The notes beneath the pieces are model-generated. The model was not told the origin of the DNA. It worked only from the letters and a program-made list of their open reading frames with translations, and searched no databases. Of a stretch of DNA of 64,000 nucleotides, positions 4,674-46,725 are shown piece by piece; position 1 is the first letter of the stretch, and every line of letters starts with the position of its first letter. Made by a program: the position numbers and the translations under genes. The DNA is from Scenedesmus sp. PABB004 (lineage: Eukaryota): positions 1,178,001 to 1,242,000 of the forward strand of contig JABVCE010000002.1 in assembly GCA_014905635.1 (NCBI GenBank), given 5' to 3'.

Positions 4674-4725
<52 letters not shown>

Positions 4726-15473: not shown

Positions 15474-16569
15474 ATGCTCGCGGCCGCGCGCGCTGCGCTC
15501 GCGGCTGCCGCCGGTGCCAGCAGCTGCTGCGCCGGCGGCTCCAGCAGCGCCAGCGGTGCGGCGCGAGCAGCGGCGGGCGCGATGCGGGCGCTGCAGCGTC
15601 GCTGCGCGAGCAGCGACGGCGCGGCGGCAGCGGGCGTGGCGCACGCGCCGCCGGGGGGTCTCGACGCCTCGCAGCTGGTGAGCGGCCGCGCGCCGTCGGC
15701 GGCAGCGCCCCGCGCCGCACGCGCGCCCGCACGCGCGCCCGCCCACGCGCCGGGCCGCGCGCCGGCCGCGCGCAGACGGCGGAGCAGGCGGCGCACCTGC
15801 GCGCGCTGCGCTACCTCATGGCGCGCCCGCTCGCGGCGGCGCGCGACGCGGCGGCGCTGACGGGCCTGGCCGCGGGGTACCGGGACCTGTCGGTCATCAT
15901 GGACCAGCTGCACAAGCGCGACGTCCTTGGCATCCCCCGCCCCCTGCTCGACGAGCCCCCGGCGCCCGCCGGCGCGGACGCCGACGCGGCGGGCGCGGAG
16001 CAGCGGCCCGGCGCGGCGGCGCCCGCGCCGGTGCCGGGGCGGCGGCGCCGGGGCGCAGCCAGATGTTCTATCCCGTGCGCGACCTCAGCGCGCTGCCCGA
16101 CGCGGCGCCGCCGGCGGGCGGGTGGCTGCGCAACCACCTGAAGGAACAGTACATGACCCGGTGCGGGAGGGAGCGGGAGGAGGGGTGTGCGTGGTGGTGG
16201 TGTGTGTGGGGGGGGGGGGCTAGGCTGGCCTGTGCGGGGCACGGAGCGCCGCGGCGGCCCGCCCGCGCCGCTGACGCCGGGGGCCGCCCGCCGCCCGCCC
16301 GCCCGCCCGCCCGCCCGCGCAGCGTGACCGCGTTTGCGCAGCTGCTGCCCAACCACCTGGAGGTGAGCTACCAGACGGGCTGCGGCATCGTGCTGTGGCC
16401 CGCGATGGAGGCGTTCTACCCGGCGCTCTTTGACGTCGAGTCGGCGCTGCGCTACCTCAAGCCCGGCACCAAGCGCACGCGCACCAAGCGCCCGCGCGCT
16501 GCAAAGCGCCCGCGCTGCACGCTCGGGTACCAGCGCACGATGCCCTACCACAAGCCGCGCCTCGTGTGA
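15474..16569 (+). CDS. Predicted mitochondrial protein whose C-terminus resembles the C-terminal segment of ribosomal protein S4 (uS4m)
   Basis: Presequence-like MLAAARAALAAA...RALQRRCASS. Introns 15678-15775 and 16161-16322, plus one ending near 16062. Last exon LPNHLEVSYQTGCGIVLWPAMEAFYP followed by a basic tail. TGTAA at 16659. Confidence 0.6.
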
Positions 16570-16658
16570 GGCCGGCCGGCGCCCGCGGCGGCGGCGGCGC
16601 GGCGGCGGCGCGGCGGCGGCGGCGCGGGCCCGCCGGCGCGAGCGGGGCGAGCCGGGGC

Positions 16659-16663
16659 TGTAA
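16659..16663 (+). promoter_or_regulatory. Chlorophyte polyadenylation signal TGTAA
   Basis: ctgTAActg about 90 bp after the stop at 16569. Confidence 0.55.
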
Positions 16664-16922
16664 CTGAGTCGCATGTGGCATGCCTCGCGGGCGCCAGCTG
16701 CTGCCTCGGCGGTCGCGCGGCCTGCAGCCGGGGTCCAAGGCGCGAGCAGCGCGGCGGCCGCCCGGCCCGCCGCCGGCCCTCCCGCCCCCACAGCCGCCCC
16801 CACAGCCGCCCCCACAGCCGCTCGTCGCTGGCCTGTTGAATCGCCGCGCCCTGCGCAGAGCCCTCCCGTCGCGCGCGAGCTCAGCTCAGCCGGCAGGTGC
16901 TGCGGCGGCGCGCTGCGCAGCG

Positions 16923-18665
16923 ATGCGTCCGCCCAAGCTGGGCGCCCTGCCGTCCCGCGGTGAGGGTCTGGCGCGCCTGGAGGCGCCTGGCAGCGCCGGC
17001 GGCGCGGCATGACCCGCCGCTGCCGACGCCGCCGCAGTCGTCCAGGCGGCGCTGGTCGCCGCGCTGCTGCTGGCATGCTCGTGGCTGGCGCTGCCCCGGC
17101 TCCGCACGCCAGCCGAGAGCGCGTGCCCGCGCGCCGCCGCCGCCAGCCTCGGCGCGCCGGGCGCGGGCGATGGGCGTGCTGCGCTCGGCGACTTGGCCGA
17201 CCTGCTGCCGCGCCTGCTGCCGCGCACCAACTTCAGCGCCCTGGCCGCCGCCGACGTGCTCGACCCTGCCATCGCGGCGGGCGCGCCCGCGAGCGAGCTG
17301 CGCCGGCTCATGCAGCTGCACAGCCGCCTGTTCTGCGCGTGAGGCGGCGGCGGCGGCGGCGGCGCCCGCGCGGCGGCAGCGAGTCCCCGACCGCGCCGTG
17401 CCGCGCCGCCCGCGGCAGTGCCGGCCTGCACGAGGAGCCGCTCCCCGGCAGCCGCGCGGTGCAGCTGGGCAACGCCAGTCTGCACGTGTACGGCGGGCGG
17501 GACATTGTCTCGGCGCACATCGCCGGCGGCGCGCGCACCTGGGAGGCTGCCGAGACGCAGGCGCTCCTCTGGGCGCTGCGCCAGCCGCCCGGCGGGGCGC
17601 GGCGCGGCGGCGCGGCGGGCGGCGCGCCTGTCGCGCCGCTCGTCGTGGACGTGGGCGCCAACGTCGGTGCGCGCACGGCACGCGCGGGCCGCGGCGGGCA
17701 GTCGCAGCCGCGCTCGCTGGCGCAGCACGCATGTCGCTCGGCCGGCTGTCTGCCGCCGCGCCCTGCAGGTTGGTTCATGGCCAACGCGGCCGCCGCCGGC
17801 GCGCGCGTCGCGGCGTTTGAGGCGATGGCCGCCAACGCCGCGCTGCTGCGGCGCACGCTGTGCGCCAACCCCTGGCTGCACGAGCGCATCGCGCTCTTCG
17901 CCACCGGGCTGGGCAACGCGTCTGCAAGCTGCTTCGTGATCAGCGACGTCCACAACGCCGTCGACGGCCACACCAAGTGCACCGCCGGCGAGCCGACGGC
18001 GCCGCCGGGCTACGCGGTGCGCCGCGACGCGCGCGCCGGCGGCGCTGCGCGCTGGGCGTCGGCGGCGGCGCCTGACGCGCGAGGGCGCCCCGCCTGCGCA
18101 GGTGCGCGGCGCCATGACGGTCAGGCGCCTGGACACGCTGGTGGCGGAGGACGTGCAGGTGGGTGGGGCGCCCGGCTGGCCGGCAGGGGTGGCTAGCAGG
18201 GAGGGGGGAGGCTGCGGGCGGGCACGGCGCGCGCGCGAGCCGCCCCACAGCCAGCACCGCCAATTCTGCCGCCGGGCAGGTGCTGAAGATCGACGTCGAG
18301 GGCCACGAGGCGCAGGTGCTCGCGGGCGCGGCGCGGCTGTTTGAGCGTCACGCCGTGTCGTACGTGATGCTCGAGTGCAACCTCGGCATCATCGGCGACG
18401 CCGGCGGCCGCAGGCTCATCGCGTGCGCGCGCCGGCGCCGGGCGCGGCGGCCGGGCGCGGGCGGGTCGGGGAGGTAGGGGGCAGCGCGCGCACCGAGCGC
18501 GCCCGGCCGCCCGCGGCGCGCAGGGACCTCGACGCGCTGGGCTTTGCCGTCAGCGCGGCGGGCTTCCGCGGCCCGTTCTGGAGCGAGGCCGACGTGCGCG
18601 CAGGGCGCACGGGCTGCACGTCGATGAACCTCTATGCCACGCGCAAGGACCTGGCCGCGCGCTAG
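16923..18665 (+). CDS. FkbM-family (Methyltransf_21) SAM-dependent methyltransferase with N-terminal membrane anchor
   Basis: VVQAALVAALLLACSW anchor, VVDVGANVG|WF, RVAAFEAM, RRLDTLV, VLKIDVEGHEAQVLAG, VMLE. TAG at 18663-18665. Confidence 0.9.
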
Positions 18666-18838
18666 CCGCGGCGCAGCGCGGCGCAGCGCGGCGCCAGGGT
18701 GGAACTGAGGGAGTGGGGAGGGGCTGCCAGGCGGCGACGAGGCGCCTGAGCGGGGCTGCAGAGGGACGCGGTGGCGGCCGCCCTCGGGGGACCGAGGGCC
18801 AGTTCAACTCGCGCGCGCGCTGACCGCCGCCCCGCCGC

Positions 18839-20396
18839 TCAGCCGTTGGCGCCGCCGAGCGCGCACTCGGGCGCGACTGCGCCGGCACGGCGGTGCGCCG
18901 CCAGCACGCTGCCGACGGTGACCCCGACGGCCGCGCCCAGCAGCCCGCCGGCCATCAGCGCCGCGCCCGCGCCGCCGCCGCCGGCGCCGCCGCCGACCAC
19001 CGCCCGCCGCCACCCGCGCGCCGCGCTCCGCCCGCCGCCGCGCCCGGCGCTGTCGCCGGCGCTGGCCCAGCCGGGCGCGAGAGGGATGATCTCGTCATGC
19101 GGCAGGTCGGCGAGCGTCTCGCCGCCCTCGGGCGCGGCGGTTATGGCCAGCGTTTGGCTGTAGCGCGCGTCCAGGTCCTGCGCGACGCGCGCCGCGCCGA
19201 TGTGCTCGAACAGCCCCGCGTGCTGGCCCGTGGCGAGGTCGACGCACGCGCTGCGCTCTGCAGCGCTCGCGCCGCACACGAATGCCACCGAGAAGCCCGC
19301 CCGGCACGCGCGCGCCGAGTAGTCAGCCTCCCCGTCCACCGCTGGCATGGGGCCCAGCCGGTGCAGCCTGGGCATGTGGATGAGCGTCGCGCCGTTGGAC
19401 CAGCCCCTGCTGTGCGCGCACGGCGCCGCGGCGCGGCGCTGGTGGGCGGCGCGCGCGCCTGCGCAGGCGGCCGCGGGCGGCCGCCCGCAGCCCCGCAGCC
19501 CCGCGCACCCCCAGGGCGACTCGGTGAGGTTGCGGCAGGTCTGGCGCACCAGCGACACGGCAACGCGTGCGCCGCCCACGTCCACGCTGCTGGCCTCCCA
19601 CGCGCCCAGCGCGTGCGGGCGCGCCCGCCAGGCCTCCAGGTCGCGCAGCCAGACCTGCAGCAGCGTGTCGTCGCGCTCCTGCGGGGGCCGCGGCGCCGGC
19701 GGGCGGCGGGCGCGCCGTGTGCTGCGATGCGCGCGCTGGCGGCGGGCGCGGCACGCCGCGCGCCACCCTCGGCGCGCGCACCAGCACCGCCATCGCCGCC
19801 CCCACGACGGGCAAGCTGGCCGGCCAGGTGTCGGCGCGGGCCTGCCAGTCGTCCTCCAGGCTGAGCACGTAGCGCGCGCCAAGGTCGGTGCACATGGAGA
19901 ACAGCAGGTTGAAGCCTCGGCTCAGCCCGACCGTGCGCCGCAGGTGCACGAGCCGCAGCCGCCCGCCCGCGGACGCCGCCAGCGGCGCCAGGTGCGCGGT
20001 CGCATTGGCCAGCGCGCCCACGCTGGAGCCGTTGTCGAGGATCTGCAGCACCTGCGCGCGCGCGCCGCCGGGCCCGAGTCGGCGGCCGCCGGCTGGCGCT
20101 GCTGCGCTGGCTCGACCCGGGTCGGCGCCGCTGACTGGCAGTGGTGCGAAGCGCGCTCGCCCGGGCACCGGCGGCTGGCCGCGCCGCGCAGCGCGCTGGC
20201 GGCAGCGCCAGCGCCGCACAAAAGGCTGCCGCGGCTCGATGCGAGCCATGTAGCGCAGGAGGGCGCGCACGCTGGGCACCAGGTAGTGCGGGCGATTGTA
20301 GCTGAGAGATGCAACGCAGAGCAGCGGCAGCTTCGCTGCGCCCGCAACACCCGCGCCGGCGAGCACCGCCAGAATCGCCACGCAGGCACAACGCAT
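18839..20396 (-). CDS. Secretory-pathway GT-A fold glycosyltransferase (GT2-like) with C-terminal hydrophobic segment
   Basis: Signal peptide MRCACVAILAVLAGAG, SLSYNRPHYL, ILDNGS, GLSRGFN, YVLSLEDDW (DxD-like), WSNGATL, FEHIG. C-terminal ALMAGGLLGAAVGVTVGSVLA. Confidence 0.72.
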
Positions 20397-20757
20397 CGTT
20401 GAGATCGTCTGAGAGCCCGCACGCAGCCGTTCAACTGCGCAGGCGGCCGCCGGTGTGGCGCGACCGCCGCCGCTGTCCAGCGCCGGCGCGCGGCAGCGCC
20501 GGGCGCGCCGGGCCCCCTGATGGAGGCCGTGCAATCGCCGTTCGCGCACGCGCGCGCGTCAGCACTCGTGGTGGCAGCGCCGCTTGGCGGCGGCGATGCG
20601 GCGCGGTCGGTCGCGCCGAAGCGGCGGGCGCGCCGCGGGCTGGGCCAGGCTCGCCTGTCGGGGCGCGACGCACGGGAGAGGGGCACGTGCGCGCGGGCGG
20701 CAGCATCGTCGCCGCCCCGCGGCGCAACGGGCAAACGCGGTTCAACGCGGTTCACCA

Positions 20758-22959
20758 TCAGTCGCCGCCGCCGCGCGCCTCGTCCTCGCCGTCCCGCTGC
20801 TGCGGCTCCTCGTCGCTGCCGGGCGGCGGCCGCCGCGCCTGCACGATGGCCTCCAGCAGCGCGAGCGCCTCGCCGTCGAGCGGGCGCCCGACCAGCCGCA
20901 CGCCCAGCTCGCCGCTCAGCACGCCGATGCGCCGCTCGTCGCCGCGCACCTCGCGCAGCAGCTCCAGCTGCGCGCGCGAGAGCGTGGTGTAGACCTGCAT
21001 CGCCGCGCCACCGCGCCGGGCCGCCGCGCCGCCGCCGCCGCGCGCGCCGGCTGCGGGCGGGCGCGCGGGCGTGCACGCGCGCGCGCGCGCGCGCGCGCGT
21101 CGGCGGGTGGTCGGCGGCGCGCGCGCGCGGGCGCCGGCCGGCAGCAGCGAGGGGCCGGCCGCGCCGCGCCCGCGGCGGCGCACCCAGGTCGACCGCGACG
21201 AGCGCCTGGTCCTGCAGCCCGCTGCCGGGCGGGCCGAACACGGCGCGGAAGGCACCAAACTCCTCGTCGGGGCCCGCCGGCGCGCCGTGGGCGTCGTCGC
21301 CGTCGTCGGGGGGCGGGTCAAACACCTGTGGGGCGCGCCGCCGCGCGCGGGGCTCGGCGCGCGAGGGGCTCGGCGCGCGAGGGGCTCCACGTGCGCGCGG
21401 CGGTCCGCAGGCGGGCGCCGCCGCGGCGCTGCGCCGGCGCACCTGCTGCAGCAGCTCCGACAGCTTCACCAGCTGCTGCCCCGCGGCGGTCGCGCGCGCG
21501 TCGGCCACGGGCGCGGCGTACGCCGCGGGCGCGCGCGGGCGCAGCTCCTCGCCGCGCGCCTCGGCAAACGCGGCCATGATGTTGGCGGCCTCGCGCAGCC
21601 CCGTCGCAAACGCGCCGTGCATCGTGGCCGGGTACCTGGGCGCGCGGACGAACGGAGGGGCGCGGCGGAGGGAGGGAGGGGGAGGGGGGCGCGTCGGCGC
21701 GTCGCGCCCGCGCCCGCGCCGCGCGCGTCGCACGGCGGCCGGCGGCGCGCCGGCGCCTCGCGCGCGCACCGCGAGGTGGTGGCCTCGCCGGCAAAGAACA
21801 CGCGGTCCCCCAGCGGCGTCGCCATGGCCTCGTAGTCGGCGGCGCCGCTGCTGCCCGGCGCGACGGACGAGTAGGAGCCGTGGCACATCGGGTCCGCGCC
21901 CCAGGCCGTGCACACCGCCTGCAGCGGGTCCGGCACGTCGACGCCCTGCGGCTTAAACATGCCGCGCAGCAGGGCCATGACCTCCGCCACGCACGCGTCG
22001 TGCGGGCGGCCCTCAAACGCGGGCGCCGCGTCGCCCGCGACGAGGCCCGCGAGCACCGCGCCGCCGGCGATGCCGTCGTAGGCGTAGAACAGATAGTACA
22101 GCCCCCGCGCCGACGGGTCGGACCGCACGTGACCAAACATGTCCTGCCCGCGGCGCGGCCGCGGCGGCGCAGGGGCGCGGCGGGGTGGGCGCGCGCCCGC
22201 GCCGCGGCGGCGCGGCGGCGCGCCGGCGCGGGGGCGCGGCGGAGTGGGCGCCGCGGCGGCGCACCCGCGCGCCCCAGAAGCAGCGGGGGAAGAGCAGGGC
22301 GACCTTGTTGAGCACGCCAAAGCCGAGGCGCCGGATGGCAGCGGCCTTGCGGCGCGGCAGCGGCGGGACAAAGGCGAGGCCGCCGCGCTTGAGCACGCCG
22401 AGCGGGACCGTTACGAGCGCCGCGTCGGCGGCAAACACGCCCGCGTCGGTGTGCACCTCGACCTGCGCCGGCGGCGGCGGCGGCGGCGGCCGCGCGTGCT
22501 CCACAGCCTGCCACGCGCGCGCGCGCGCGGCGCGGGCAGCGCGGCGGCGCGGGCAGCGCGGCGGCGCGGGCGGCGCCGCGCGGCGCACCCCCTGGTCGCA
22601 ATACTGCAGCAGGCGCGCGGGGGCGCGGTAAAAAATGGGGATGCCCTGGGCGAGGCCCTCCAGCAGCCGCAGGTTGCCGCCTGCGCGCCGCGGGGCGTGC
22701 GCGGCGTGCGCGGCGTGAGTGGCGTGGGCGGCAGGGCGGGCGCGGCGCGGCGCGGCGCGGCCGTGGGCGCGGCGGCGCACCCGGCAGGAATACGTGCGCC
22801 CCCTGGTGCTCAAACTCGTCGTCCAGGTCCCAGTGGCGCATCGACAGCGCAGCGAGGCGCGTGGCATTGGCAAACTCGATGTTGGCGAGGTGCCACTGCA
22901 CGAGCAGCTGCCGCGCCTGGTCGACGCTGAAGCGCGCCGCCAGCGGCGCCGCGCCGCCG

Positions 22960-23024
<65 letters not shown>

Positions 23025-24899
23025 AGGGCTGGGCGGCAGCGGGCCGCCGTTCATGCCTGGCTGCTGGCCGCTCGCCGACTGCTGCTCCGGCGGCTGCTGC
23101 TGCTGCTCCTGCTGCTGCTGCCCCTCCTGCTGCTGCCCCTCCTGCTGCTGCTGCTGCTGCTGCTGCCCCTCCCGCTGCTCCGCCGCCGCCGCGGCTGCCG
23201 CCGCCGCCCGGCGCTCCGCGCGTTGTATGCGCGCCTGCTCGCGCCGCCACAGGCCGTCGAGCGAGGCCTGCAGGCTGACCGCGTCGCCGCCGGCGCCGAG
23301 CTGGTCGCGCAGCTCCGCCGAGCGGTCCAGCAGGCGGTTGAAGAGGTGCTCCACCTGGGCGCGGCGGCGTGGCGCGCGCGGCGGGCGCGGCGGCGTCGCC
23401 GCGCGTCGGCCGCGCCGCCTCCTGGCCGGCTGCGTGGGCGCCGCCGCGCGGCGCGGCGGCGGCGGGCGCGGCGCGCGCCTGCTTGTCGACGCCCGCGTCG
23501 AGCTGGCTGCCGTCGCGCAGGTACAGGGGCACGCTGGAGCCGTTGATGTCGTGCATGGGGATGCCCAGCTGCCGCGCGAGCACCGCCAGCGGGTTGCCGT
23601 CGATGCCTGGCGCGGCCACGCGGGGGCGGCGGCGGCGGCGCTCGCGCGGCGGCGGCGGCGGCGCTCGCGCGGCGGCGGCGGGCGGCAGTGGGGGCGCGGG
23701 CGTCTCCCGGCCGCCGCTCCGCCGCACCGGTGATGATGCTGCCGCCGAGGTCGGCCACCGCGGCAGCGCCGTCCGGGCCCTGGCGCAGCGGCGGCGGCGC
23801 GCGGCGGCGGCAGCGGCAGGGGCTGAGCGCGCGGCCGCTGCCGCGGCCGCGGCGGGCCCCCTTGGCCGCGGCGCCCACCTCGAGTCGGTGCGTGAAGACG
23901 CGGCCGCCGGGGCGGTCGGCGCCCTCCACCACGACGACGGCGTACCCGTGGTTGGCCAGCTGCCGCGCCGCCGACAGGCCTGCGCGCGGCGCGGCGCGGT
24001 CGCGACGCGGCGCGGTCGCGGCGCGGCCGGGCGCGCGCCGCGGGGGCCGCCGCGCCGCGGCGCCCCGTCGCACTGCCGTAGCACAGCCCACCCGCGAGGC
24101 CCGCGCCGATGACGACCACGGCCTCGCTGCGCGGCGGGCTGGGGCGGCCGGTGATTGCCGGCGCGACGCCGAAGTTTATGAAGCCCTGCAGGTCGAGCCA
24201 CTGCCACGCGCTGTCGACGAGGTGCTTGTGCCGCGGCAGGATCTTGGCGCCCGCCGCGTCACGGGAGAGGAAGGCGCCGACGTTGGAGCGCCAGCGCGCC
24301 AGGATGTGGTTGCGCACCTGCACCGGCAGCGGCGGCGGCGGCGGCGGTGGCGTGGCTGCGCCGGGCAGGGGTGCCGAGCAGGGCGCTGGCCGCTGCGCAC
24401 GCACACTGCGTGCGTGCGCGTGACGGGCTGCGCCGGCAGCGCACGCCGCGCGCCGCGCACCCGGAAGTACGCCTCCTCGTCCAGGTCGTCTGGCAGCAGC
24501 CCCGCCTCGTGCTCGTTCATGCCAAACGCGTCCAGTCCCACTGCGCGGGCGAGGGGCACCGAAGCGGGCTCGATCGGCGGCCGCACGCGCAGCACGGCGC
24601 GGCGCGGCGGCGGCGCTGAGCTACCCGCGCTCCGCACCCGCGTACGCCACCTCGATCTCCAGGGCGTCGTCGGTGATTTCCTTCTGGCGCTTGGCCGCGG
24701 CCGTCTCCTGCCCCCGGCCTGGCCCGCGCTTGCGGTGGCTGCGCAGCTCCTCCTCTTCATCCTCCAGGGCGCCGTCAGGCCACGCACGCACCGTCACGCC
24801 CAGCGCCGGGGTGCCGCCGGCGCTGGGCGCGCTGCTGTCCGCCGACTGCTCCGGAGAGGATGGCGGGCTGCCCACCTCCCCACCGTCGCTCGCCTCCAT
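20758..24899 (-). CDS. Lysine-specific histone demethylase LSD1-like (plant LDL/FLD type): SWIRM plus amine oxidase domain
   Basis: VRNHILARW...GFINFG (SWIRM), VVVIGAGLAG, GGRVFT, DLGGSIITG, WHLANIEFANA, HWDLDD, GVLNKV (catalytic Lys), GSYSS, FFAGEAT, YPATMHGAF. Confidence 0.95.
22961..23022 (-). repeat. (CAG)n microsatellite encoding poly-Q in the LSD1-like gene
   Basis: About 20 uninterrupted ctg units on the + strand. Confidence 0.9.
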
Positions 24900-24963
24900 C
24901 CCGCCAGCGTCCCCGGCGGCACGCCGCGTAGCGACGCCAACGCCGCGATCCCGCCGGCCGGCA

Positions 24964-25940
24964 GCGCGTCTGCAGCCGACCGCCGCCGCTGCCGCTTGCT
25001 GCTGCTGCTGCGCTCTCGCTCGCGCACGAGCCCCGAGCCGCTGCGGGCGGGGCCGGGCGCGTCGTGGCGCGCAGCCAACACGACGCCGGGGGGGAGCACT
25101 GCTGGCGCGTGTGTGTGTGTGTGTGGGGGGGGGGGGGGCGTGCTCTCGCTCGAGCTGCAGCGCCGCGGGGCCCCGAACCCCACAAGGCCAGGCGCGCTGC
25201 CGCCGCGCGCGGCGGCGCGCGTGGTGGAGGTTCTCTTAGCGCTGGCGCTTGGCGCTGCTGCTGCTGGTGGTGCTTGCCGCTGCCGCCGCTCTGCAGGCAG
25301 CCCTGCACGGGCGCCCCGCCGCCGCCAGCGGCGAGCGGTCCTGCCCGCTCTGCTTCCTCGCTCGCCGGGCGGCTGCCCAGCGCTGAATGTAAGCCATACG
25401 ACGAAACAAAACGCAAAAGGTGAGCGCAGCGAGGGAGGTTCGAACTCCCGCGGGAAATCCCACTAAGTTAGCAGCCTAGCGCCTTAACCACTCGGCCATC
25501 GCTGCTGACTGTACTGGCCGAAGCCAGCCGATCAGTGTCCACGCACCCAGGCGTGGCTACCCCACCGCGATTGCCATCTGGCACTGCCTGCAGTATATAT
25601 ACAGCACATCTCAAATTGACGCTTTTTGCTTTTTGGCAATTGTGACCCCTGAAACGCGTTCTTCGCAAATTTCGATCCATGTGGACCGAAAATGGGCACC
25701 CCCTCCTGGGGGATTTGTGGACGCATTTCTTGGCGCAACCGGCCATCGCACCACCCGCCCGCACACGGTCTCTCTCGCGCGCGCGCACGCGCATGCGGCA
25801 GCAAGGCCTTCAACACACCTGGCCAGAGACGTGTCAGACACCTGCAGCAACCCCACCTCTGCTGCTTCTGCGCCCCGCCGCGGCAACCCGGCTTTGCGCC
25901 CGCACGCGCGAACGCATGCATCGCTGCCAACACGCAGGCG
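24964..25940. repeat. Left arm of a long inverted repeat (~977 bp)
   Basis: Reverse complement of 26884-27849; inner coordinates sum to 52824 (25505/27319, 25940/26884). Confidence 0.97.
25425..25505 (-). tRNA. tRNA-Ser (anticodon GCT)
   Basis: Reverse complement of the 27319-27399 tRNA, with a T-run terminator downstream on the minus strand. Confidence 0.95.
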
Positions 25941-26885
25941 CTCCTCTGGGCGCTGCGCCAGCCGCCCGGCGGGGCGCGGCGCGGCGGCGCGGCGGGCGGC
26001 GCGCCTGTAGCGCCGCTCGTCGTGGACGTGGGCGCCAACGTCGGTGCGCGCACGGCACGCGCGGGCCGCGGCGGGCAGTCGCAGCCGCGCCCGCTGGCGC
26101 AGCACGCATGTCGCTCGGCCGGCTGTCTGCCGCCGCGCCCTGCAGGTTGGTTCATGGCCAACGCGGCCGCCGCCGGCGCGCGCGTCGCGGCGTTTGAGGC
26201 GATGGCCGCCAACGCCGCGCTGCTGCGGCGCACGCTGTGCGCCAACCCCTGGCTGCACGAGCGCATCGCGCTCTTCGCCACCGGGCTGGGCAACGCGTCT
26301 GCAAGCTGCTTCGTGATCAGCGACGTCCACAACGCCGTCGACGGCCACACCAAGTGCACCGCCGGCGAGCCGACGGCGCCGCCGGGCTACGCGGTGCGCC
26401 GCGACGCGCGCGCCGGCGGCGGCGCTGCGCGCTGGGCGTCGGCGGCGGCGCCTGATGCGCGACGGGGCCCCGCCTGCGCAGGTGCGCGGCGCCATGACGG
26501 TCAGGCGCCTGGACACGCTGGTGGCGGAGGACGTGCAGGTGGGTGGGGCGCCCGGCTGGCCGGCAGGGGTTGCTAGCAGGGAGGGGGGAGGATGCGGGCG
26601 GGCACGGCGCGCGCGCGAGCCGCCCCACAGCCAGCACCGCCAATTCTGCCGCCGGGCAGGTGCTGAAGATCGACGTCGAGGGCCACGAGGCGCAGGTGCT
26701 CGCGGGCGCGGCGCGGCTGTTTGAGCGTCACGCCGTGTCGTACGTCATGCTCGAGTGCAACCTCGGCATCATCGGCGACGCCGGCGGCCGCAGGCTCATC
26801 GCGTGCGCGCGCCGGCGCCGGGCGCGGCGGCCGGGCGCGGGCGGGTCGGGGAGGTAGGGGGCAGCGCACACGCTGAGCGCGCCCG
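25932..26885 (+). pseudogene. Internal fragment copy of the FkbM methyltransferase gene (source 17555-18505), introns retained
   Basis: Near-identical to 17555-18505, with about a dozen substitutions/indels counted by eye. Lacks the first exons and the last exon. Confidence 0.93.
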
Positions 26886-27849
26886 CCTGCGTGTTGGCAG
26901 CGATGCATGCGTTCGCGCGTGCGGGCGCAAAGCCGGGTTGCCGCGGCGGGGCGCAGAAGCAGCAGAGGTGGGGTTGCTGCAGGTGTCTGACACGTCTCTG
27001 GCCAGGTGTGTTGAAGGCCTTGCTGCCGCATGCGCGTGCGCGCGCGCGAGAGAGACCGTGTGCGGGCGGGTGGTGCGATGGCCGGTTGCGCCAAGAAATG
27101 CGTCCACAAATCCCCCAGGAGGGGGTGCCCATTTTCGGTCCACATGGATCGAAATTTGCGAAGAACGCGTTTCAGGGGTCACAATTGCCAAAAAGCAAAA
27201 AGCGTCAATTTGAGATGTGCTGTATATATACTGCAGGCAGTGCCAGATGGCAATCGCGGTGGGGTAGCCACGCCTGGGTGCGTGGACACTGATCGGCTGG
27301 CTTCGGCCAGTACAGTCAGCAGCGATGGCCGAGTGGTTAAGGCGCTAGGCTGCTAACTTAGTGGGATTTCCCGCGGGAGTTCGAACCTCCCTCGCTGCGC
27401 TCACCTTTTGCGTTTTGTTTCGTCGTATGGCTTACATTCAGCGCTGGGCAGCCGCCCGGCGAGCGAGGAAGCAGAGCGGGCAGGACCGCTCGCCGCTGGC
27501 GGCGGCGGGGCGCCCGTGCAGGGCTGCCTGCAGAGCGGCGGCAGCGGCAAGCACCACCAGCAGCAGCAGCGCCAAGCGCCAGCGCTAAGAGAACCTCCAC
27601 CACGCGCGCCGCCGCGCGCGGCGGCAGCGCGCCTGGCCTTGTGGGGTTCGGGGCCCCGCGGCGCTGCAGCTCGAGCGAGAGCACGCCCCCCCCCCCACAC
27701 ACACACACGCGCCAGCAGTGCTCCCCCCGGCGTGGTGTTGGCTGCGCGCCACGACGCGCCCGGCCCCGCCCGCAGCGGCTCGGGGCTCGCGCGCGAGCGA
27801 GAGCACAGCAGCAGCAGCAAGCGGCAGCGGCGGTCGGCTGCAGACGCGC
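26884..27849. repeat. Right arm of the long inverted repeat (~966 bp)
   Basis: Reverse complement of 24964-25940; differs at a few SNPs and microsatellite lengths near the outer end. Confidence 0.97.
27319..27399 (+). tRNA. tRNA-Ser (anticodon GCT)
   Basis: Acceptor stem GCAGCGA/TCGCTGC plus discriminator G. A-box TGGCCGAGTGG. Anticodon arm CTAGG-CT-GCT-AA-CTTAG. Long variable arm TGGGATTTCCCGC. T arm GGGAG-TTCGAAC-CTCCC. TTTT at 27406. Confidence 0.96.
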
Positions 27850-28325
27850 ACTTGTGCCCGCGCCGGCGCCGCCTGCCCACCACAACCGCTGTGAGCTTCT
27901 CGTACGCGCCGGCCCCACGGCGCACGGCCGCCGCGAGCGCTGGCCGCCCGCCGCCGGCGGCTGTGGCGCGCGCGCGCGCGCGGCAGCGGGCAGGGGCTTG
28001 GGACGGGTGCTCACGACGTTGTGGCAAGGCGGCGAGCGAGCGGCGGGAGGGCGTGCGGCGGGCGCGGCGTGCGCCGCCGCTGCGTGACGGGCGCAGCATG
28101 TCATGTCTCGCAGCACGCCCTCCGCGCGCTCCGGCCGCGCCAGCGCACTCTCAGCACCGAGCTACGCCGCCCTGGCAAGCCCGTGGCAGCGCCTCGCCTG
28201 TCCTTGTTGAGGGCCCCCGCGCCGCGCCGGGAGGCCGCGAGTAGCGCCCATGCGGCGCCCACGGGCCATGCCCCGCTGAGCGGACGCGCCTGCGGGCGCT
28301 GGGGCGCGGCGCCGCGACGCGCGGC

Positions 28326-31300
28326 ATGGGGGACGACTTTTACGCGCGCCAGGTGCGTCTTGCCGCCCCCGAGCGGCCCCTGCGGAGGGCGGTGCGGCCC
28401 CAGCAGCGGAGGCCGCGCGGGGCGGGCGTGCGGACGGCGCGCTGGGGCGCGGCGGCGCCGGCGCCGGCGGCGCTGCTGCGGAGCGGCCGCCGCGCCGGCG
28501 GGCCCGCCGCAGCGCGGCGGGCGGCGCGCGCGCCGGCCGCCCACGCCGCCCCCACCGCTGCGCCCTGCCGCCGCCGGCCGCGCGCGCAGAAGCGCGACTG
28601 GGTGCCGGGCGCCGAGCGGCCGGGCTTCGGCCGCGGCAGCGGGCCCGCGCCGTTTGGGGGCCCCCGCGGGGGGCGCTTCGAGCACCACGGCGGGCCGCCC
28701 CGCGACCTGGGCAATGACCGCCCGCCCCGGCCCTTCTTTGGCGCCGGCCGGGGGCCGCCCTTCCCGCCGCCGGGGCGCCGCGAGCCAGGTGGGCAGGGCG
28801 GGTGCCCCGCGCGCGCGCGCGCGGGCCTGCCGGCCGCGCGGCGGGCGGTGCCGACCCGCCCGCGCCCGCCGCGCGCAGGCGCGTTTGGCCCCAACGGCGA
28901 CTGGCCGCAGCGCGCGCCGATGGGGGGCGGGCCGATGGTGAGCGGCGGGGCGGCGGCGCGGCAGCGGCTGCGCTGCTGCCCGCGGGCCGCGCCTGGCGCG
29001 GTGCGCGGTGCGCGGCCGACTGTCTGCTGCTGAACCGCAGGGCGGCCCCGACGGCTGGCAGCATGGCGGCGGCGCCAAGGGCTTTGAGGACCGCGAGCGC
29101 GAGCGGGAGCGCGAGCGCGAGCGCGAGCGCGAGCGGCGGCCCGCGAGCCTGGAGCGCGGCGCCGCCGCGAGGGACGGCCTGCCGGGGCCGCCGTTGAGGG
29201 GCGGCGCCGGCGGCCCCGGCCAGCGCGACTGGGGCGACCCGCCGCGCGGCGGGCCGGGCGCGTATGGCAGCCCCGAGCGCCTCGGCGGCGAGCGCGGGCG
29301 GGGGCTGGACCGGCCGCTGGCGCGCGGCGATTCCGGCTACGGCGGCGGCGACCGCGGCGGCCCGCTGCGCCAGCTCAGCGGCTTGCGGGACGGCCCGCAC
29401 TCGGCGGGCGCGCGCGACGGCAGCAGGTGGGGCGCCGGCGGCGGGCGGGAGCGGCTCGGGCGCGGCTGCGGGCGCCGCCGCCGCTCGCGCCGACGCCGCA
29501 CCGCTGCCGCCGCTGCCCGTCGCAGACGCGAGAGCCGGGACTGGCGCGGCGGCGACAGCAGGCTCGAGAGGCACGGCGCCGGCGGCGGCAGCATGGGCCG
29601 CAGCCGCAGCCGGAGCAGGGAGCGCGTCGGAGGCGAGCTGGGTGCGGGGCTGGCGCGCAGCAGCAGCTGGCACCCGGGCGGCGCCGCGTACCGCCACGAG
29701 CGCGGCGAGCGGGACCGCGACCGCAGCCGCGACCACAGCCGCGACGACCGCAGCAGGCCCGGCAGCAGCCGGCACAGCAGCAAGTCCAGCAGAAGCCGCA
29801 GCGCCAGCCGCGCGCCCGACGAGGGGCCGTGGCAGCCGCAGCGGGGTGGCGACCACGCCAGCGACGACATCGAGGCGGGCGAGCTGCCGCTGGAGGGCGC
29901 GGAGCTGCCGCGTGCCGGCGCGGGGCTGGGCGGCGGCGGCGGCGCCGCCGCAGCGCGGGCGTCCGCGTCGCCGCTGTCCGACGGGCCCCTGCTGGGCAGC
30001 GCCGACCAGCACATGTACTCGCCGCCGTCGGACGGCGAGGAGGGCCCCGCGCCGGGCGTCGCTGCGGCGCAGCAGGGCGGCGCCGAGGGCGCGCCGGCGC
30101 GCGCGCTGCTGCCCGAGCCGCTGCCGCGCGCCGGCGCGCAGAGCGCGGGCGCGGCGGCGGCAACCGCGGCAGCCGGCGGCGCCGCGGACGGCGCCGCAGT
30201 GCCGCCACGCGGGGGCAGCCCAGCGCGGCCGAGCAGCAGCCTGCAGCGCGCCGCGTCAGGCGAGCCCGGCGGCGCCGAGCCGCTCAGCCGGCAGGCCAGC
30301 CAGGACGGCCCGCTGCAGCGGCAGCCGTCGGGCCCGGACGGCCAGCTGCCCTGCGGCGGCGGCGCCGGCGGCGACGACGGCCCCGTGCCAAAGCGGCGGC
30401 GCATCGGGTTTGGCATGGGCCTCGCCCGCCTCGGCAAGGCGCCCGGCAGCGCCGGCGGCGCCGGCGAAGGCGACGCCGACGGCGGCGGCGCTGACGGCGG
30501 CGGCGCCGACGGCGAGGCGCCGGACGGCGCGGCGCCCGAGCCCGATGCGCAGCCCGAGCCGGAGCCGCCGCCGCCGCCGCCGCCGGTGAACAAGGCGGAC
30601 ATCTCGCGCGCGCTGCAGCAGCTCGAGGACGAGGCGGGCGAGCTGGAGGCGGAGCTGGGCGAGCTCACCTCGGCGACCGATTCGCTGACCAACCGCCTCG
30701 CCGCGGTGGACCAGGAGCTGGTGCAGGTGCAGGGCCGCGACGTGATGGCCGAGGCGCAGGCGCGCGTCGCGGCCTGGCTCGACGAGCGCCGCCAGGCCGC
30801 CGCCGCGGCGCGCGCGGCGCGCTTCCGGCGCGAGCAGGAGGAGCGCGCGGCGGTCGCGGCGGCGGCCGAGAAGCAGGCCGGCGCCGCGGCGGCGCTCGCG
30901 GCGGCCGAGGCGGCCGCGGCCGAGGCCGCCGCGGCCGAGGCGGCGGCGGCCGAGGTGGTCATGGCGCGCGCGGCCGCGGCCGCGGCGGCGGTGGCCAAGC
31001 AGCTCGCCGCGGAGCAGCAGCTCTACGCGGACGGCCGCCTGCGCTCGCGCTCGCGGTCGCCGGCGCCGGCGCTGCTGGCGGGCGCGCGCGGGCGGCGCCC
31101 CGCGCCGCGTGCGCGGCGCGACGGCGAGCCCGCCGGCGGCCTCGCGGGGCTGAGCGCCCGCGCCGCAGAGCTGCTCTGGGACCTGCCCCGCCCCGACGCC
31201 GCGCGGCAGGCGGCCGTGCTGGCGGCCAACAAGGCGACCGCGTCGGGCGCGCGCACGGCGCTCGCGGCGCTGCTGCCGGGCAGCATGGCGGCCGAGGCGG

Positions 31301-32453
31301 CGGCGGCGCTCGGCGCGGCGCAGCCGCTGCGGCGGCGCTACTCGAGCATCGCCGACCTGCCCGGCGCGTGGGAGGCGCTGCAGGCGCAGCACGCGGCCGA
31401 CGCGGCGCCGGTCGCCCGCTTCCTGTCGCAACGCCGCGCGCTGCTGGGCCTCAAGCACGCGGCCATGGTCGCGCGCTACAAGGCCGGCGCGGCCAAGTTT
31501 GCGGCGGGGCTCAAGGCGGAGCAGGCGGCGGCGGCCGCCGCCGCGCCCGCGCCGCCGGCGCCGTCGAGCGGCGGCGGCTGGGCGGGCGGCGGGCGCGCGG
31601 GCGGGCGGTCGACGCGCGGCGGCGGGCCCGCGTCGGACGCGTTTGGCTGCGCCGCGATCAAGAGCGAGCTCGAGGAGTCGCGGCTGATGGCGGTCTTCCG
31701 GGCGCTCGAGGACCTGCGCACGATGAGCGCGCTGCCGGACCAGGCGCTCGACGCGTGGGCGGCGCGGTGGTCGGCGTTTGCGAGCGACAACGGCCGCGTC
31801 GACGACCCCGCGCGCGAGCTCGCGGAGGACAGCATGGGCCTCGACTGGACGCCCGACGAGCGGCGCACGTTCATGGAGCGCTTCCTGCAGTTCCCCAAGA
31901 ACTTCCGCGCGATCGCGAGCTACCTCCCCCACCGCACGGCCGCCGAGTGCGTCGTGTTTTTCTACAAGCACCAGAAGCTCGACGAGTTTGCGGCCGTGCG
32001 GCGCAAGCAGCAGCTCAAGAAGCGGCGCGCGATGGCGGAGACCAACAAGCGTGTCGGCGCGGGCGGGCGCCCGCTCGCGATCTCCGCGCTGCTGCAGGCC
32101 GCGGCGGAGCAGCGCGAGCAGCGCTACCGCGACCGCGAGAAGGACAAGGAGCGCAAGGACGCGGCGGCGCGCGACCGCGGCGACGCGCCGCGCGGCGGCG
32201 GCGGCGGTGCGGCCGGCGGCGAGGGGAGCGGCGGCGGCGCGCCGGGCGGGGCTGGGGCGACCGCGCCGGCGGCGGCGCGCGCCGCGCGGCCGCGCGCGCG
32301 CGCCGCGGCGGCGCGGCGCGCGGGGCGCGGCCGCGGCGGCGCCGGCGGCGGCGGCGAGGACGACGACGACGACGATGACTACACGCCCTGGGCCGACGCG
32401 GCGCCGGCGCCCGGCGGCGCGCCCGGCGCCGCGCGCCGCGCGAGCGGCGAGGA

Positions 32454-32485
<32 letters not shown>

Positions 32486-33679
32486 ACCCCGGCGGCGCGT
32501 GGCCGGACGGCGAGTTTGTGTCGGCGGTGCTGAGCCACGGGCGCAACATGGCGTGCATCGCGGCGCACATGGCGGCGGCGGGGTATGCCAAGAACGCCAA
32601 CTACGCGCGCTGGCACTACAGCCGCCACCGGCGCCGCCTGGGCCTGGACGAGGTCGCCGAGCGGGGGCTCGCGGCGCGGCGCGCGGCGCGCGTCGCGGCC
32701 GGCGGCGACGCCGCCGACGAGCCCGACGGCCGCTCCGCGAGCGGCGCGGACGACGACGACGGCGACACCGACAGCGGCGCGCGCGGCGCCGGCGCCGGCG
32801 GCGCCCCGCGGCGCAGCTGGGCGTGGAGCGACGCCGAGCGCGGCGCGTTCCTGGCGCGCTTCCGCGCCGTCGGCCGCGACTGGGCGCGCCTCGCGGAGGC
32901 GCTGCCGGGGCGCAGCACGGCGCAGGTGCGGGCGTACTACCAGAGCAACCGCCACAAGCTGCGCCTCGACCGACTGGACCCCGCCGCCGGCGGCGGCGGC
33001 GCCGGCGGCGGCGCGGCGCGCGGCGGCCGCGGGCGCGGCAGCCGCGCGGGCTCGCTCCCGTCCGACGCGCTGCTGAGCGGGCTCTCGCTCGCGAGCGCGG
33101 GCAGCGTGGGCGAGCAGGCGCGGCTCGTGCTGGCGGGCGTGCTCGGGCGGCAGTCGTCCGCGGCCGACCCCGCGCCGCCGCCGCGGGCGCCGTGGACGAG
33201 GCCTCGTGGCGCAAGCTCACCGGCGGCGCCGGCAAGGGCGCCCAGCCCGCGGCGGCGGCGCCGCCGGCCGCGCCGCCGGCCGCGCTGCCGGCCGCGCCGC
33301 CGGCCGCGCCGCCGGCCGCGCCGCAGCCCAACCCCAGCACCGCGGCGGGGCTGCTGGCGCTGCTGCAGGAGCGGCACCTCATTGCGGCGCGCAGCGAGCC
33401 AGGTGCGCGGCGGGGCCTGCGCCCGGCGCAGCGGCGCCGCGGCCGCCAGCACGCCCTCGCTGACCCCTCTCCCCTCCCGCTGCCGCCTGCGTCGCCCACC
33501 CCCTACGCCGCCACCGCAGCCGCCGTGGTGCCCGGGGTGCAGGGCATCCCGCTTGCAGCGCTGGCGGGCTCGCCGCTGCCGGCCCTGGCCGGCTCGCCGC
33601 TGCCGGCGCTGGCGGTGCCAGCGCCCGTCCCCGCCAAGCTGCCCACGCCGGCGGAACAGCTGCTGTCGCTCGCAGCCGC

Positions 33680-33710
<31 letters not shown>

Positions 33711-34004
33711 GAGCTGCTGGCGTCGGCACTGCTGCAGCTGCAGGCCGTCGCGACGGCCGGCCAGCCGGCGCCGACGCCGGGGGTGCTGATGCTGCAGGCC
33801 GCCCCGCTGGCGGCGGCGCCCAGGCACCTCGCGTCGGCGCTGCTGGGCGCTGCGGCGCCGGCGAGCGGCAGCCCCTTCCACCCCAGTGTTTCGGTCAGCG
33901 CGCCAGCGCTCTCGGGGCTGGACGCCTCGCAGCTGCTGGCGCTGCAGCTGACGGGCGGCGCTGGCGCCAGTGCCAACCTGCTGGCGCAGCTGAACGCCTC
34001 GGCC

Positions 34005-34037
<33 letters not shown>

Positions 34038-34906
34038 AGCGCCGCTGGGCTGCAGGCGCAGCTGGCAGCGCTGCTCACGCAGCGGCAGCAGCAGCAGCAG
34101 GCGCAGCAACGGCAGCCGGCGCAGCAACAGCAGGCGCAGCGGGTGCAGCCGGCGCAGCAGGCGCAGGAGCAGCACACGCCCGCGGCCACCGCGGCTGCGG
34201 TGGCGGAGCTGGCGCGCGTTGCGGTTGCGCTGCGAGCAGCGCAGCAGGCGGCGGCCGCGCCGCCGGCAGCGTCCCCAGCGGCAGCAGCGGCTGCCGCCGA
34301 GGCCGCGGTGCCCACGGACGGCCTGTCCGCGCTGCAGCAGACGCTGTCCAGCATCAGGGCGGCGGTCGGGCTGGACGCCAGCACGCCGCCGGCCGCGGCG
34401 GCCCCCCAGCCGCCGCAGCGGGCCAGGCGGCCGCGCTGGCGGCCGCGCTGGCGGGCTCGGCGCACGGCCTGGAGGGCGGCGAGCTGCCGGCGGCCAAGCG
34501 CGCCAAGCTCGGCGGCGCGGCCGACGCGGCGGCGGCGGCGGGCGAGGCAGCGGGCGACGCGCTCGCGCTGGCGGCGGCCGCCGGCGAGGCCGCTGCGGTC
34601 GCGGCCGCGGCGGCCGAGGCGGGCCAGGCCGCCGAGGTCGCGGCTGCGGCGGCGGCCGAGGCCGACGCCGCTGCCGCCGCCGCGACGCTGAGCCACGCCA
34701 TCCTGGCGGCGCAGCACCAGATGGAGGAGCGCCTGCACGAAGCGGAGGCGGCAGCAGGCGCAGGCGGCGGCGGTGCGGCGCATGGCGCTGCAGGTGCGCC
34801 GCCGCCGGGCGCCGAGCCCCCGCGGCCAATGGACGTGGACGCCGCCGCCGTCGACGCGGCGGTGGCGGCGGCGGCGGCCATCGCGGCAGCAGCGGAGCCG
34901 GCGTAG
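28326..34906 (+). CDS. Large SANT/Myb-domain nuclear corepressor (NCoR/SMRT/Snt1/POWERDRESS-like)
   Basis: SANT1 WTPDERRTFMERFLQFPKNFRAIASYLPHRTAAECVVFFYKHQK matches the NCoR DAD pattern. SANT WSDAERGAFLARFRAVGRDWARLAEALPGRSTAQVRAYY. RS/RG-rich N-terminus, coiled coil, Q/A-rich tail. Two apparent frameshifts near 33170 and 34408. Confidence 0.85.
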
Positions 34907-35325
34907 GCCGTGTGTACAGCAGGCGTGCGGGCACACGGTGGGCAGGGTTGAGGCTGGGGCGCAGCGTGCGGGCGGGTGTCGAGACTGGCCTTGACTGTTA
35001 CTCAGCACAACCGATCGGCGCCCAGCAGTGGCAGTGCCTGGCCCACACTGTGCAGTCCGGTCTGGGCGGCGCGCTCGCGCAAAAATCCGCGGCAGCGCCG
35101 TCGAGGCGGCGACTGCCCGGCCGGCTGCGCGCCGCCGGCGCGCCAGCGAGTGCAGTTTGTCCGCAGCAGCCGACCCCCGGCTGCTGACCCCCCCCCCCCC
35201 CTCCCTTCCCTGCCCCCGCCGGCCGGGCTGCACGCAGCCAGCCACGGCCGGGCCCCGCCCACGCGGCCGCGCCCGCGGCGCTGCCCGCGCAGCAGCGCCG
35301 CCCGCCACGCGCGCCGCGCGCCACG

Positions 35326-46665: not shown

Positions 46666-46725
<60 letters not shown>

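Follow-up and report, generated by a model that had tools for sequence, protein, structure and literature searches.

FoSTeS/MMBIR, the concept of serial template switching, and templated insertions share two features: several junctions at one site, and nearby segments copied in both direct and inverted orientation. In human constitutional inverted duplications, the available text of Hermetz et al. 2014 (PMC3907307) describes spacers of 766–70,466 bp that represent the arm's native single-copy neighbor, inverted microhomology of 2–8 bp, an accompanying terminal deletion or dicentric intermediate and, in some cases, insertions templated from nearby. During break repair in yeast, templated and inverted insertions arise when one end is extended by synthesis and the other is closed by end-joining, and local foldback insertions mostly measure 5–34 bp, as set out in the accessible text of Yu et al. 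2024 (PMC11724301). Sex-chromosome palindromes, as far as the available portions of PMC3723533 and PMC8600007 describe them, comprise inverted arms around a unique spacer with arms that are too similar for their age; they range from 10 kb to Mb, carry protein-coding families, and their gene conversion has been demonstrated across individuals and species. Close anti-parallel pairs of same-isoacceptor tRNA genes occur in many genomes, and 56% of tDNAs in Chlamydomonas and 41% in Volvox lie in clusters, according to the accessible text of Bermudez-Santana et al. 2010 (PMC2888827), whose authors proposed inverted tRNA arrangements as a possible origin of small-RNA hairpins; such surveys count pairs and leave their formation unresolved.

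The locus described here is a clean natural example of this known class of rearrangement and constitutes no new kind of element or mechanism. It is a 2.9 kb palindrome (arm, spacer, arm) with outer limits at 24964–27849 of a 64 kb window, i.e., the whole stretch of DNA analyzed, which belongs to the intron-bearing, extremely GC-rich nuclear genome of a eukaryote with green-algal affinity. Like human fold-back inverted duplications it displays inverted copies, a kilobase-scale spacer (943 bp) and a nearby-templated insertion; the overlap at the junction of spacer and inverted copy is 2 bp, a length that random pairs reach in 27% of cases. Unlike them, it has arms of only ~1 kb, retains both flanks and encloses an ectopic spacer copied from a site 8.4 kb away. 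As in FoSTeS/MMBIR, a direct copy of part of an FkbM gene is combined with the adjacent ~970 nt copied in inverted orientation, with the junctions at one ancestral point. The pairing of one microhomology-primed junction (9 nt) with a blunt junction is shared with the yeast insertions and fits synthesis followed by end-joining, although the segments copied here span ~945 and ~970 nt. Inverted arms and a unique spacer are likewise features of sex-chromosome palindromes, and the arms here may, like theirs, be over-similar for their age, but the present structure is far smaller, carries a tRNA gene and provides a single sequence from which conversion might be read. In contrast to the tRNA surveys, the junctions of one particular pair are preserved here and its mechanism is readable. 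Overall, we estimate a probability of roughly 60% that the palindrome is genuine and represents a small segmental duplication generated by one replication or repair accident at one intergenic site.

Structure, junction sequences, gene content and uneven divergence are all direct observations at this locus. An inverted-repeat search recovered 25128–25940 and 26884–27696 as 813 nt of 100% complementary sequence separated by a gap of 943 nt and flanked outwards by further matches of 111 nt (97%), 43 nt (95%) and 44 nt (86%); at such a length a chance origin is impossible. Self-blastn of the window aligned 24964–25940 with 27849–26884 at 98.57% identity over 977 columns. The left arm (24964–25940, minus strand, 977 nt) is thus the reverse complement of the right arm (26884–27849, plus strand, 966 nt) at 98.6%, as the first-pass annotation had proposed when naming self-comparison and arm alignment as checks; the 813 nt of inner identity and the overall value of 98.57% are what these yielded. 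Every difference between the arms is confined to the outer ~165 bp by alignment (~180 bp in the earlier reading), and 25128–25940 is 100% identical to the matching part of the right arm. The outer differences comprise SNPs at 25011, 25026 and 25082, a 3-nt GCC-type indel, a 1-nt G indel and a 7-nt difference in a (TG)n/G-run, with homopolymer lengths of G14 in one arm vs. C11 in the other. The palindrome is intergenic, flanked on one side by an LSD1-like gene on the minus strand, with SWIRM and amine oxidase domains by Pfam, and on the other by a Myb gene on the plus strand. The putative start codon of the LSD1-like gene, identified by coding-frame scan, is located at 24897–24899 (minus strand), 64 nt outside the left arm. 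Only two repeats of at least 100 nt and at least 90% identity occur in the 64 kb window, namely the arm pair and the pair formed by the spacer and its FkbM source, which fits one local event and not a repeat family.

Each arm carries an intact tRNA-Ser(GCT) gene pointing outward, in agreement with the first-pass annotation. ARAGORN identified exactly two tRNA genes in the window, both tRNA-Ser(gct): an 82-nt gene with a long variable arm at 25424–25505 (minus strand) and an identical second gene at 27319–27400 (plus strand). Rfam supports both calls (RF00005, 59.5 bits per tRNA, E 1.5e-11, gathering score 29). In tRNA orientation, the left arm consists of a 5' flank (25506–25940), the tRNA gene and a 3' flank (24964–25423); the 5' ends of both genes point inward, so that transcription would proceed outward. 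Cloverleaf, long variable arm and GCT anticodon are present in both, as are the motifs TGGCCGAGTGG and GTTCGAACC, which we take to be the A box and B box from their match to the consensus, and T4 runs start 5 nt beyond the tRNA 3' end. By these features both would be eukaryotic nuclear Pol III type 2 tRNA-Ser(GCU) genes and presumably expressed. MFE folding of the tRNA with its flanks gave an uninformative z-score of 0.03, and the tRNA call stands on ARAGORN and Rfam. Of the 129 serine codons counted in a sample of confirmed coding sequence, 80 are AGC, so tRNA-Ser(GCT) reads the main serine codon. Each gene retains its full flanking context of 435 nt upstream and 449 nt downstream, and the proposal of a doubled tRNA dosage holds at the level of gene copy number, as two identical genes with identical flanks. 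The AT-richer segment and TATA-like box reported for each arm are likewise present: the 5' flank has a GC content of 54.6% vs. 79% for the window and contains a TATATATA box, read from the sequence, at 25594–25601, mirrored at 27223–27230. Pol III TATA elements usually lie closer to the tRNA, and at 89–96 nt upstream the TATATATA box is therefore too distant for the usual element. An Rfam search of 24500–28300 at E values up to 1 returned nothing beyond the two tRNAs and, positioned on them, plastid-motif look-alikes below threshold, and thus no second RNA gene in the AT-richer segment.

The spacer (25941–26883, plus strand, 943 bp) is a partial copy of an FkbM methyltransferase gene, the full-length version of which lies 8.4 kb upstream, as stated in the first-pass annotation. 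It matches the source segment (17546–18505, plus strand) on the same strand at 98.24% over 963 columns by blastn, and Pfam PF05050 (FkbM) was detected in both. According to a tblastn exon model, the exons of the full gene extend from ~17187 to 18653, past the copied segment in both directions, whereas the spacer contains three complete exons and part of another, together with three introns and part of a fourth. It corresponds to about residues 138–325 of a 394-aa FkbM homologue and lacks the start and the 3' exon. As the introns are retained and both ends lie inside the gene, the spacer is a DNA-level copy; a retrocopy origin is ruled out by the introns. The FkbM origin of what had been called a captured gene fragment is upheld, and "templated copy" describes it better than "captured". 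Spacer and source differ by 8 SNPs over 926 positions (0.9%) and one 3-nt indel. Differences are fewer in exons (2/566, both synonymous) than in introns (7/360; p = 0.03), a contrast that a fully inert fragment would not be expected to show. The template might have been an allele or paralogue other than the FkbM gene of the window, in which case the age comparison drawn below would fail.

Matches in public sequence data bear on whether the palindrome might be an assembly artefact, i.e., whether the structure or the inner identity could stem from a chimeric or fold-back read, a haplotype misjoin or repeat-collapsing polishing. Some arm differences are run lengths (G14 vs. C11, (TG)n), typical sites of long-read error, and multi-mapping short-read polishing can erase true differences between inner arms. 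However, the structure is internal to the assembled sequence, with distinct unique flanks on either side and zero N in the 64 kb window, and neither an ectopic spacer with 1% divergence nor true arm SNPs are products of fold-back reads. Furthermore, a separate 270-nt contig from a freshwater metagenome run covers 26799–27068 with one mismatch, carries spacer-specific variants and bridges the junction between spacer and right arm (J2), reaching 85 nt into the spacer and 185 nt into the arm. Of the four novel boundaries of the structure, J2 is the only one bridged among the matches listed for four public runs. Overall, we consider an artefact very unlikely. Seven public runs, with no RNA data set among them, were listed as containing words of the window (shares of at most 0.09 each), and four of these were aligned to it. 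Other organisms accounted for most of the matches in these runs, with short look-alikes that were GC-rich or consisted of CTG repeats. In the metagenome contigs, a search for the LSD1-like exon (124 aa) gave 175 pattern matches, none of which was confirmed by tblastn.

Long inverted termini around an intron-bearing captured fragment correspond to the layout of Pack-MULEs, and the palindrome could be read as a non-autonomous DNA transposon of foldback type, with ~970-bp TIRs that include a tRNA gene and Pack-MULE-like gene capture. In addition, a 227-nt contig from a small public run, identical to 25366–25592 (the tRNA with 58 and 87 nt of flank), has a word depth of 19.7 compared with 3.8 and 2.7 for the two other contigs of that run aligned to the window, and the tRNA core may thus be multi-copy. 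Comparison of the flanks yielded no direct repeat or target-site duplication of any length around the palindrome, in line with the earlier reading: the left flank ends in ...GGCCGGCA and the right flank begins with ACTTGTGC.... Pfam analysis of 128 stop-to-stop frames across 15000–35000 found neither a transposase nor any other domain within the arms, and coding signal was absent from the arms in the coding-frame scan. No further copy of the arm occurs in the 64 kb window, and an exact arm 25-mer had zero matches in the metagenome contig collection. The arm is moreover an ordinary tRNA gene with its flanks, one end of which lies 64 nt from a host ATG, and microhomology to the source of the cargo is a signature of repair and not of transposition. 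With target-site duplication, transposase and further copies all missing in the window and the metagenome contigs, the transposon reading was dropped, and we regard it as very unlikely.

The junctions are more consistent with template switching. At J1 (25932–25940) a perfect 9-nt microhomology, ACGCAGGCG, links the end of the arm to the FkbM source, within a wider match of 16 of 18 positions (25923–25940 vs. 17546–17563); the chance of a run of at least 9 nt is ~0.0012 in the window. J2 (26868–26885) consists of a 2-nt overlap, CG (26884–26885), expected by chance in 27% of cases, and an upstream block of transitions relative to the source at the alternate positions 26868, 26870, 26872 and 26874, a cluster that falls within 7 nt and 10–17 nt from the junction. 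The only candidate for a separate template of this 7-nt variant block in the search was a look-alike with two mismatches at 9413, within chance expectation, and a fourth template is not claimed. The outer junction has 0 nt of microhomology. Microhomology is therefore significant at one of three junctions (9 nt at J1, 2 nt at J2 and 0 nt at the outer junction), and the 2-nt and 0-nt junctions by themselves carry zero signal. The boundaries between spacer and arms given previously stand with the qualification that FkbM homology also overlaps the left arm (9 perfect nt, 16/18) and the right arm (2 nt). All three novel junctions map to a single ancestral point, which, together with the microhomologies, favors the template-switch or fold-back inverted duplication suggested in the first-pass annotation over a transposon.

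From this arrangement we infer a single-event mechanism. A DNA 3' end, whether of a stalled nascent strand or at a break, would have been present at the intergenic site between the LSD1-like and Myb genes of a hypothetical ancestral allele with a single tRNA gene. Through the 9-nt microhomology this end would have paired with the FkbM gene, which lies 8.4 kb away, and been extended along it by ~945 nt, introns included. It would next have returned to its site of origin and engaged the opposite strand there with a 2-nt overlap. Synthesis would then have run backwards for ~970 nt through the resident tRNA-Ser(GCT), and a final blunt join would have linked the product to the sequence beyond. These steps could equally have occurred in mirror image, and either arm may be the ancestral one. 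The position of the second switch, exactly at the boundary between old and new DNA, is naturally accounted for by a stalled-fork model but not by a resected-break fold-back model. The product would be two identical Pol III tRNA-Ser(GCT) genes around an inert FkbM pseudogene fragment.

Another explanation invokes two steps, in which either the FkbM filler was placed beside a single tRNA-Ser locus or an inverted pair formed first, with a separate fold-back or template switch later. The inner arms would then be identical because the arm duplication is young and not due to gene conversion. Spacer and source are separated by 8 SNPs and a single 3-nt indel over 927 nt, compared with 0/814 in the inner arms, as a younger arm duplication would give, and fold-back inverted duplications normally take the neighbor of the arm as spacer in the available text of PMC3907307. 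However, 3 SNPs and 3 indels separate the two arms in their outer 165 nt, which are contiguous with the identical part, and the arms are thus not uniformly young. Both inner arm ends also abut both ends of the FkbM copy exactly, the inverted copy starting 0–2 nt from the arm/FkbM boundary, a coincidence of ~1 in hundreds for two independent events but explained by a single event at one point. On balance, we view two separate steps as rather unlikely.

Under the single-event reading, the inner 813 nt would later have been kept or made identical, while differences accumulated in the spacer and in the microsatellite-rich outer ends of the arms. The inner arms carry 0 SNPs in 814 positions compared with 8/926 between spacer and source (Fisher p = 0.0086) and 3/165 (1.8%) in the outer arms (p = 0.0047), and the probability of observing none in 814 is 0.0003 at the pooled divergence of 1.0%. 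The homogenization of the arms by gene conversion, part of the first-pass annotation, is consistent with these counts, and the inner identity may well result from later arm-to-arm conversion; the same pattern would be expected from a younger arm duplication or from polishing of the assembly.

Long-hairpin miRNA and siRNA loci and an RNAi pathway are known in Chlamydomonas, and the palindrome could be more than a scar, namely a small-RNA or regulatory module, an interpretation we find highly doubtful. In one form of it, the TATATATA boxes could drive inward Pol II transcription, yielding convergent transcripts of the FkbM fragment and dsRNA directed against the parent FkbM gene. In another, a read-through transcript would fold into a putative ~970-bp hairpin feeding an RNAi pathway. 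A related reading builds on an ORF at 25692–26576, which starts at an ATG in the left arm (25692) and continues in phase into the FkbM exons; selection on a chimeric protein would then account for the absence of non-synonymous differences. Extrusion of a cruciform, as once envisaged for this locus, is unlikely with a spacer of 943 bp.

In general, the palindrome constitutes a well-preserved record of a complex rearrangement, with readable junctions and a template that still resides 8.4 kb away. The divergence between spacer and source provides an internal clock with which the arms can be compared. The locus illustrates a concrete route to the anti-parallel pairs of tRNA genes commonly seen in eukaryotic genomes, and indicates that the gene of a tRNA reading the dominant serine codon may be doubled in one step. 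If confirmed, the uneven divergence of the arms would represent a small, tractable case of gene conversion in kilobase-scale inverted repeats outside sex chromosomes.

The segment at 24964–27849 is an inverted duplication whose left arm (24964–25940) and right arm (26884–27849) enclose a spacer (25941–26883) that matches a gene elsewhere in the window. A repeat search of 23500–29500 recovered an inverted pair, 25128–25940 and 26884–27696, that is 813 nt long, 100% complementary and 943 nt apart, with outer extensions of 111 nt (97%), 43 nt (95%) and 44 nt (86%). Searched against the window with blastn, the region gave alignments of 24964–25940 with 27849–26884 at 98.57% over 977 columns, and of 25923–26885 with an FkbM gene segment 8.4 kb upstream (17546–18505, plus strand) at 98.24% over 963 columns. 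The two arms and the FkbM pair are the only repeats of at least 100 nt at 90% identity or more when the window, which is free of N, is compared with itself by megablast; the other rows are GC-rich simple repeats at 81–88% identity. Among them, (GCG)n-type trinucleotide arrays at 60805–60910, 46601–46728 and 4553–4736 match one another at 81–88% identity and have further matches to short stretches near 24324–24364; they are low-complexity sequence, separate from the palindrome. The first-pass annotation had described the palindrome, its arm tRNAs and its FkbM spacer from the sequence alone, and all of its factual points on these were borne out by the repeat search, blastn, ARAGORN and Rfam.

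The window has 69–84% GC per kb, GC3 is 95.7% in 1770 confirmed codons, and 97 ORFs of at least 150 aa lie between 12 and 40 kb, the six frames being mostly open. With such extreme GC and largely open frames, an ORF list has no value here unless backed by homology or codon statistics, and genes were delimited by a Pfam scan of 128 stop-to-stop frames (15000–35000) and a codon log-odds scan trained on the 1770 confirmed codons. To the left lies an LSD1-like histone demethylase gene (21321–24899, minus strand) with a SWIRM domain (PF04433) and three Amino_oxidase pieces (PF01593) in several exons at 21.4–24.6 kb; to the right, a 1615-codon frame carries Myb domains (28942–33786, plus strand). 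A weak Glycos_transf_2 match below the Pfam cut-off (E 0.0085; 19326–20558, minus strand) lies between the FkbM and LSD1-like genes. Minus-strand coding signal reaches ~24830–24900, where a putative in-frame ATG lies at 24897–24899 (reverse complement), coding signal is absent throughout the arms in the codon scan, and plus-strand signal resumes at ~28220–28520. From these coding limits, the palindrome occupies most of the divergent intergenic region. As just 64 nt separate the putative LSD1-like ATG from the left arm, the LSD1-like promoter or 5' UTR must, on the predicted gene model, lie within that arm and be duplicated in the right arm facing the Myb gene; the upstream regions of both genes now hold mirror copies of one sequence.

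Each arm carries one tRNA-Ser(GCT) gene (25424–25505, minus strand; 27319–27400, plus strand), and ARAGORN found exactly these two tRNA genes in the 64 kb. Both score 59.5 bits against Rfam RF00005 (E 1.5e-11), are identical together with 435 nt of upstream and 449 nt of downstream context, and point toward the adjoining protein gene. An A box, a B box and T4 terminators, recognized by their general consensus motifs, can be read at each. In the sampled coding sequence 80 of 129 serine codons are AGC, so that this tRNA serves the main serine codon; an extra copy could be of use or, at the least, do no harm, and the doubled tRNA dosage proposed earlier holds for gene copy number. The 5' flank of the tRNA has 54.6% GC in its proximal part and 70% in its distal part; the 3' flank has 75% and the spacer 78%. 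A TATATATA box lies 89–96 nt upstream of the tRNA, a distance that differs from the usual Pol III position, and may be part of an intergenic Pol II promoter. A 227-nt contig from a public run labelled 'organism A' (X5, 28.7 million letters) is identical to 25366–25592 and its mirror in the right arm, i.e., the tRNA plus 58 and 87 nt of flank. Its word depth is 19.7, and two other contigs of that run matched to the window have depths of 3.8 and 2.7; such depth may mean several genomic copies of the tRNA core or an abundance of its RNA. In one survey (PMC2888827), 56% of Chlamydomonas tDNAs are clustered, and clustered tRNA genes and anti-parallel same-isoacceptor pairs are described as common.

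Pfam places the FkbM methyltransferase domain (PF05050) in the spacer and its source in the same frame. A homologue search gave only three matches at E ≤0.001 among 8000 scored candidates, the best being a 394-aa Chromochloris zofingiensis protein (44% identity), and by this one named homologue the genome appears green-alga-like. Tblastn with three homologues defined plus-strand source exons at ~17187–17336, 17426–17667, 17769–17992+, 18099–18161, 18277–18405+ and 18522–18653. The spacer corresponds to residues ~138–325 of the 394-aa homologue; it begins in an exon, spans three introns and breaks off in a fourth. Its retained introns, together with the missing upstream and last exons, indicate a partial copy made at the DNA level, a pseudogene fragment, of which the 17.5-kb copy is the parent. 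Between 25941–26867 and 17564–18487 there are 8 SNPs and one 3-nt indel. Both exonic differences (26009 and 26746) are synonymous and the other seven are intronic, a lower frequency in exons (2/566) than in introns (7/360; Fisher p=0.032, on small numbers). A fully inert fragment would not be expected to show this imbalance; selection, chance, conversion with the parent or a lower mutability of exons could each account for it. In the left arm, a 294-codon frame (25692–26576, plus strand) begins with an ATG located ~90 nt downstream of the TATATATA box and continues in phase into the spacer FkbM exons; codon usage in its arm part is not coding-like, and at 79% GC open frames occur often.

At the left arm/spacer junction (J1), the end of the arm has ACGCAGGCG (25932–25940) in common with the FkbM source, inside a 16/18 match; when window positions were paired at random 400,000 times, the frequency of a shared run of at least 9 nt was 0.0012. 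At the spacer/right arm junction (J2), FkbM homology reaches 26885 and the arm starts at 26884; they overlap by 2 nt, which would happen by chance at a frequency of 0.27. Four alternate-position transitions (26868, 26870, 26872 and 26874), located 10–17 nt inward of J2, make 26868–26874 read ACACGCT vs GCGCACC in the parent, and a search for an alternative template for this block gave nothing beyond chance. The outer junctions show neither microhomology nor a target-site duplication, the latter as noted in the first-pass annotation.

The FkbM copy is bordered on either side by an inner arm end, and one arm borders unique flank at its outer end, so that the inserted block would comprise the FkbM copy plus one inverted arm. 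This block can be placed at one ancestral point (with an ancestral left arm, between 25940 and 27850; with an ancestral right arm, between 24963 and 26884), and a single event is the simplest history. Using the 9-nt microhomology, a 3' end at that point would have primed on the FkbM gene and been extended over ~945 nt of it. A switch back to the starting site, now on the opposite strand, would have been followed by ~970 nt of synthesis in reverse through the tRNA gene, and the new end would have been joined to the other side without homology. Because a stalled fork leaves the lagging-strand template single-stranded at that very place, departure, re-entry and resumption would coincide there. 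Synthesis at one end with end-joining at the other during break repair would also be compatible, matching published descriptions for yeast (PMC11724301) and for human inverted-duplication junctions (PMC3907307). A two-step history is less probable than one event, as its second event would have to begin within 0–2 nt of the first junction.

A gross assembly artefact is unlikely given the diverged spacer, the true outer-arm SNPs, the distinct flanks and a 270-nt freshwater-metagenome contig (run X1, record 7, depth 5) that covers 26799–27068 with one mismatch and bridges J2 with 85 and 185 nt per side, carrying spacer-specific variants. Public runs share at most 9% of sampled words with the window, and among the contig matches listed J2 is bridged and the other three junctions are not. 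A 258-nt contig from run X2 covers 26039–26296 and has the source-gene variant, T, at 26091.

Global alignment places all arm differences within the outer ~165 nt, where TRF reports many short tandem repeats. The differences comprise three SNPs, at 25011, 25026 and 25082 (the first two CpG-type transitions), a 3-nt indel in a GCC/CCG run, a 1-nt G indel and a 7-nt length difference in (TG)n plus a G-run (G14 vs C11). SNPs number 3/165 in the outer vs 0/814 in the inner positions (Fisher p=0.0047), in agreement with the earlier description of an identical inner part, and the probability that six of six difference events fall in the outer 165 of 979 positions is 2e-5 under uniformity. At the pooled divergence of 1.0% (spacer vs source, 8/926, plus outer arm, 3/165), 8.2 inner SNPs would be expected (P=0.0003 for none); against the spacer-source count alone, Fisher p=0.0086. 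The most natural reading of this alignment is arm-to-arm gene conversion, as described for sex-chromosome palindromes. The homogenization suggested earlier would account for the deficit; three alternatives also fit: the arm duplication may be younger than the FkbM copying, the spacer may have been copied from an unseen allele or paralogue, or the inner arms may have been collapsed to a consensus during polishing. Cruciform extrusion, also proposed, is improbable for arms 943 nt apart.

Inverted duplications with spacers, templated insertions and converting palindromes are established classes. The junctions favour the fold-back/template-switch origin first suggested; the native spacer that defines a classical fold-back inverted duplication is absent here. 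A transposon reading was rejected, the palindrome being without the target-site duplication of such elements. It appears to belong with rearrangements built by serial template switching or templated insertion, a looser class, and it represents a clean, instructive example of already known kinds of rearrangement.
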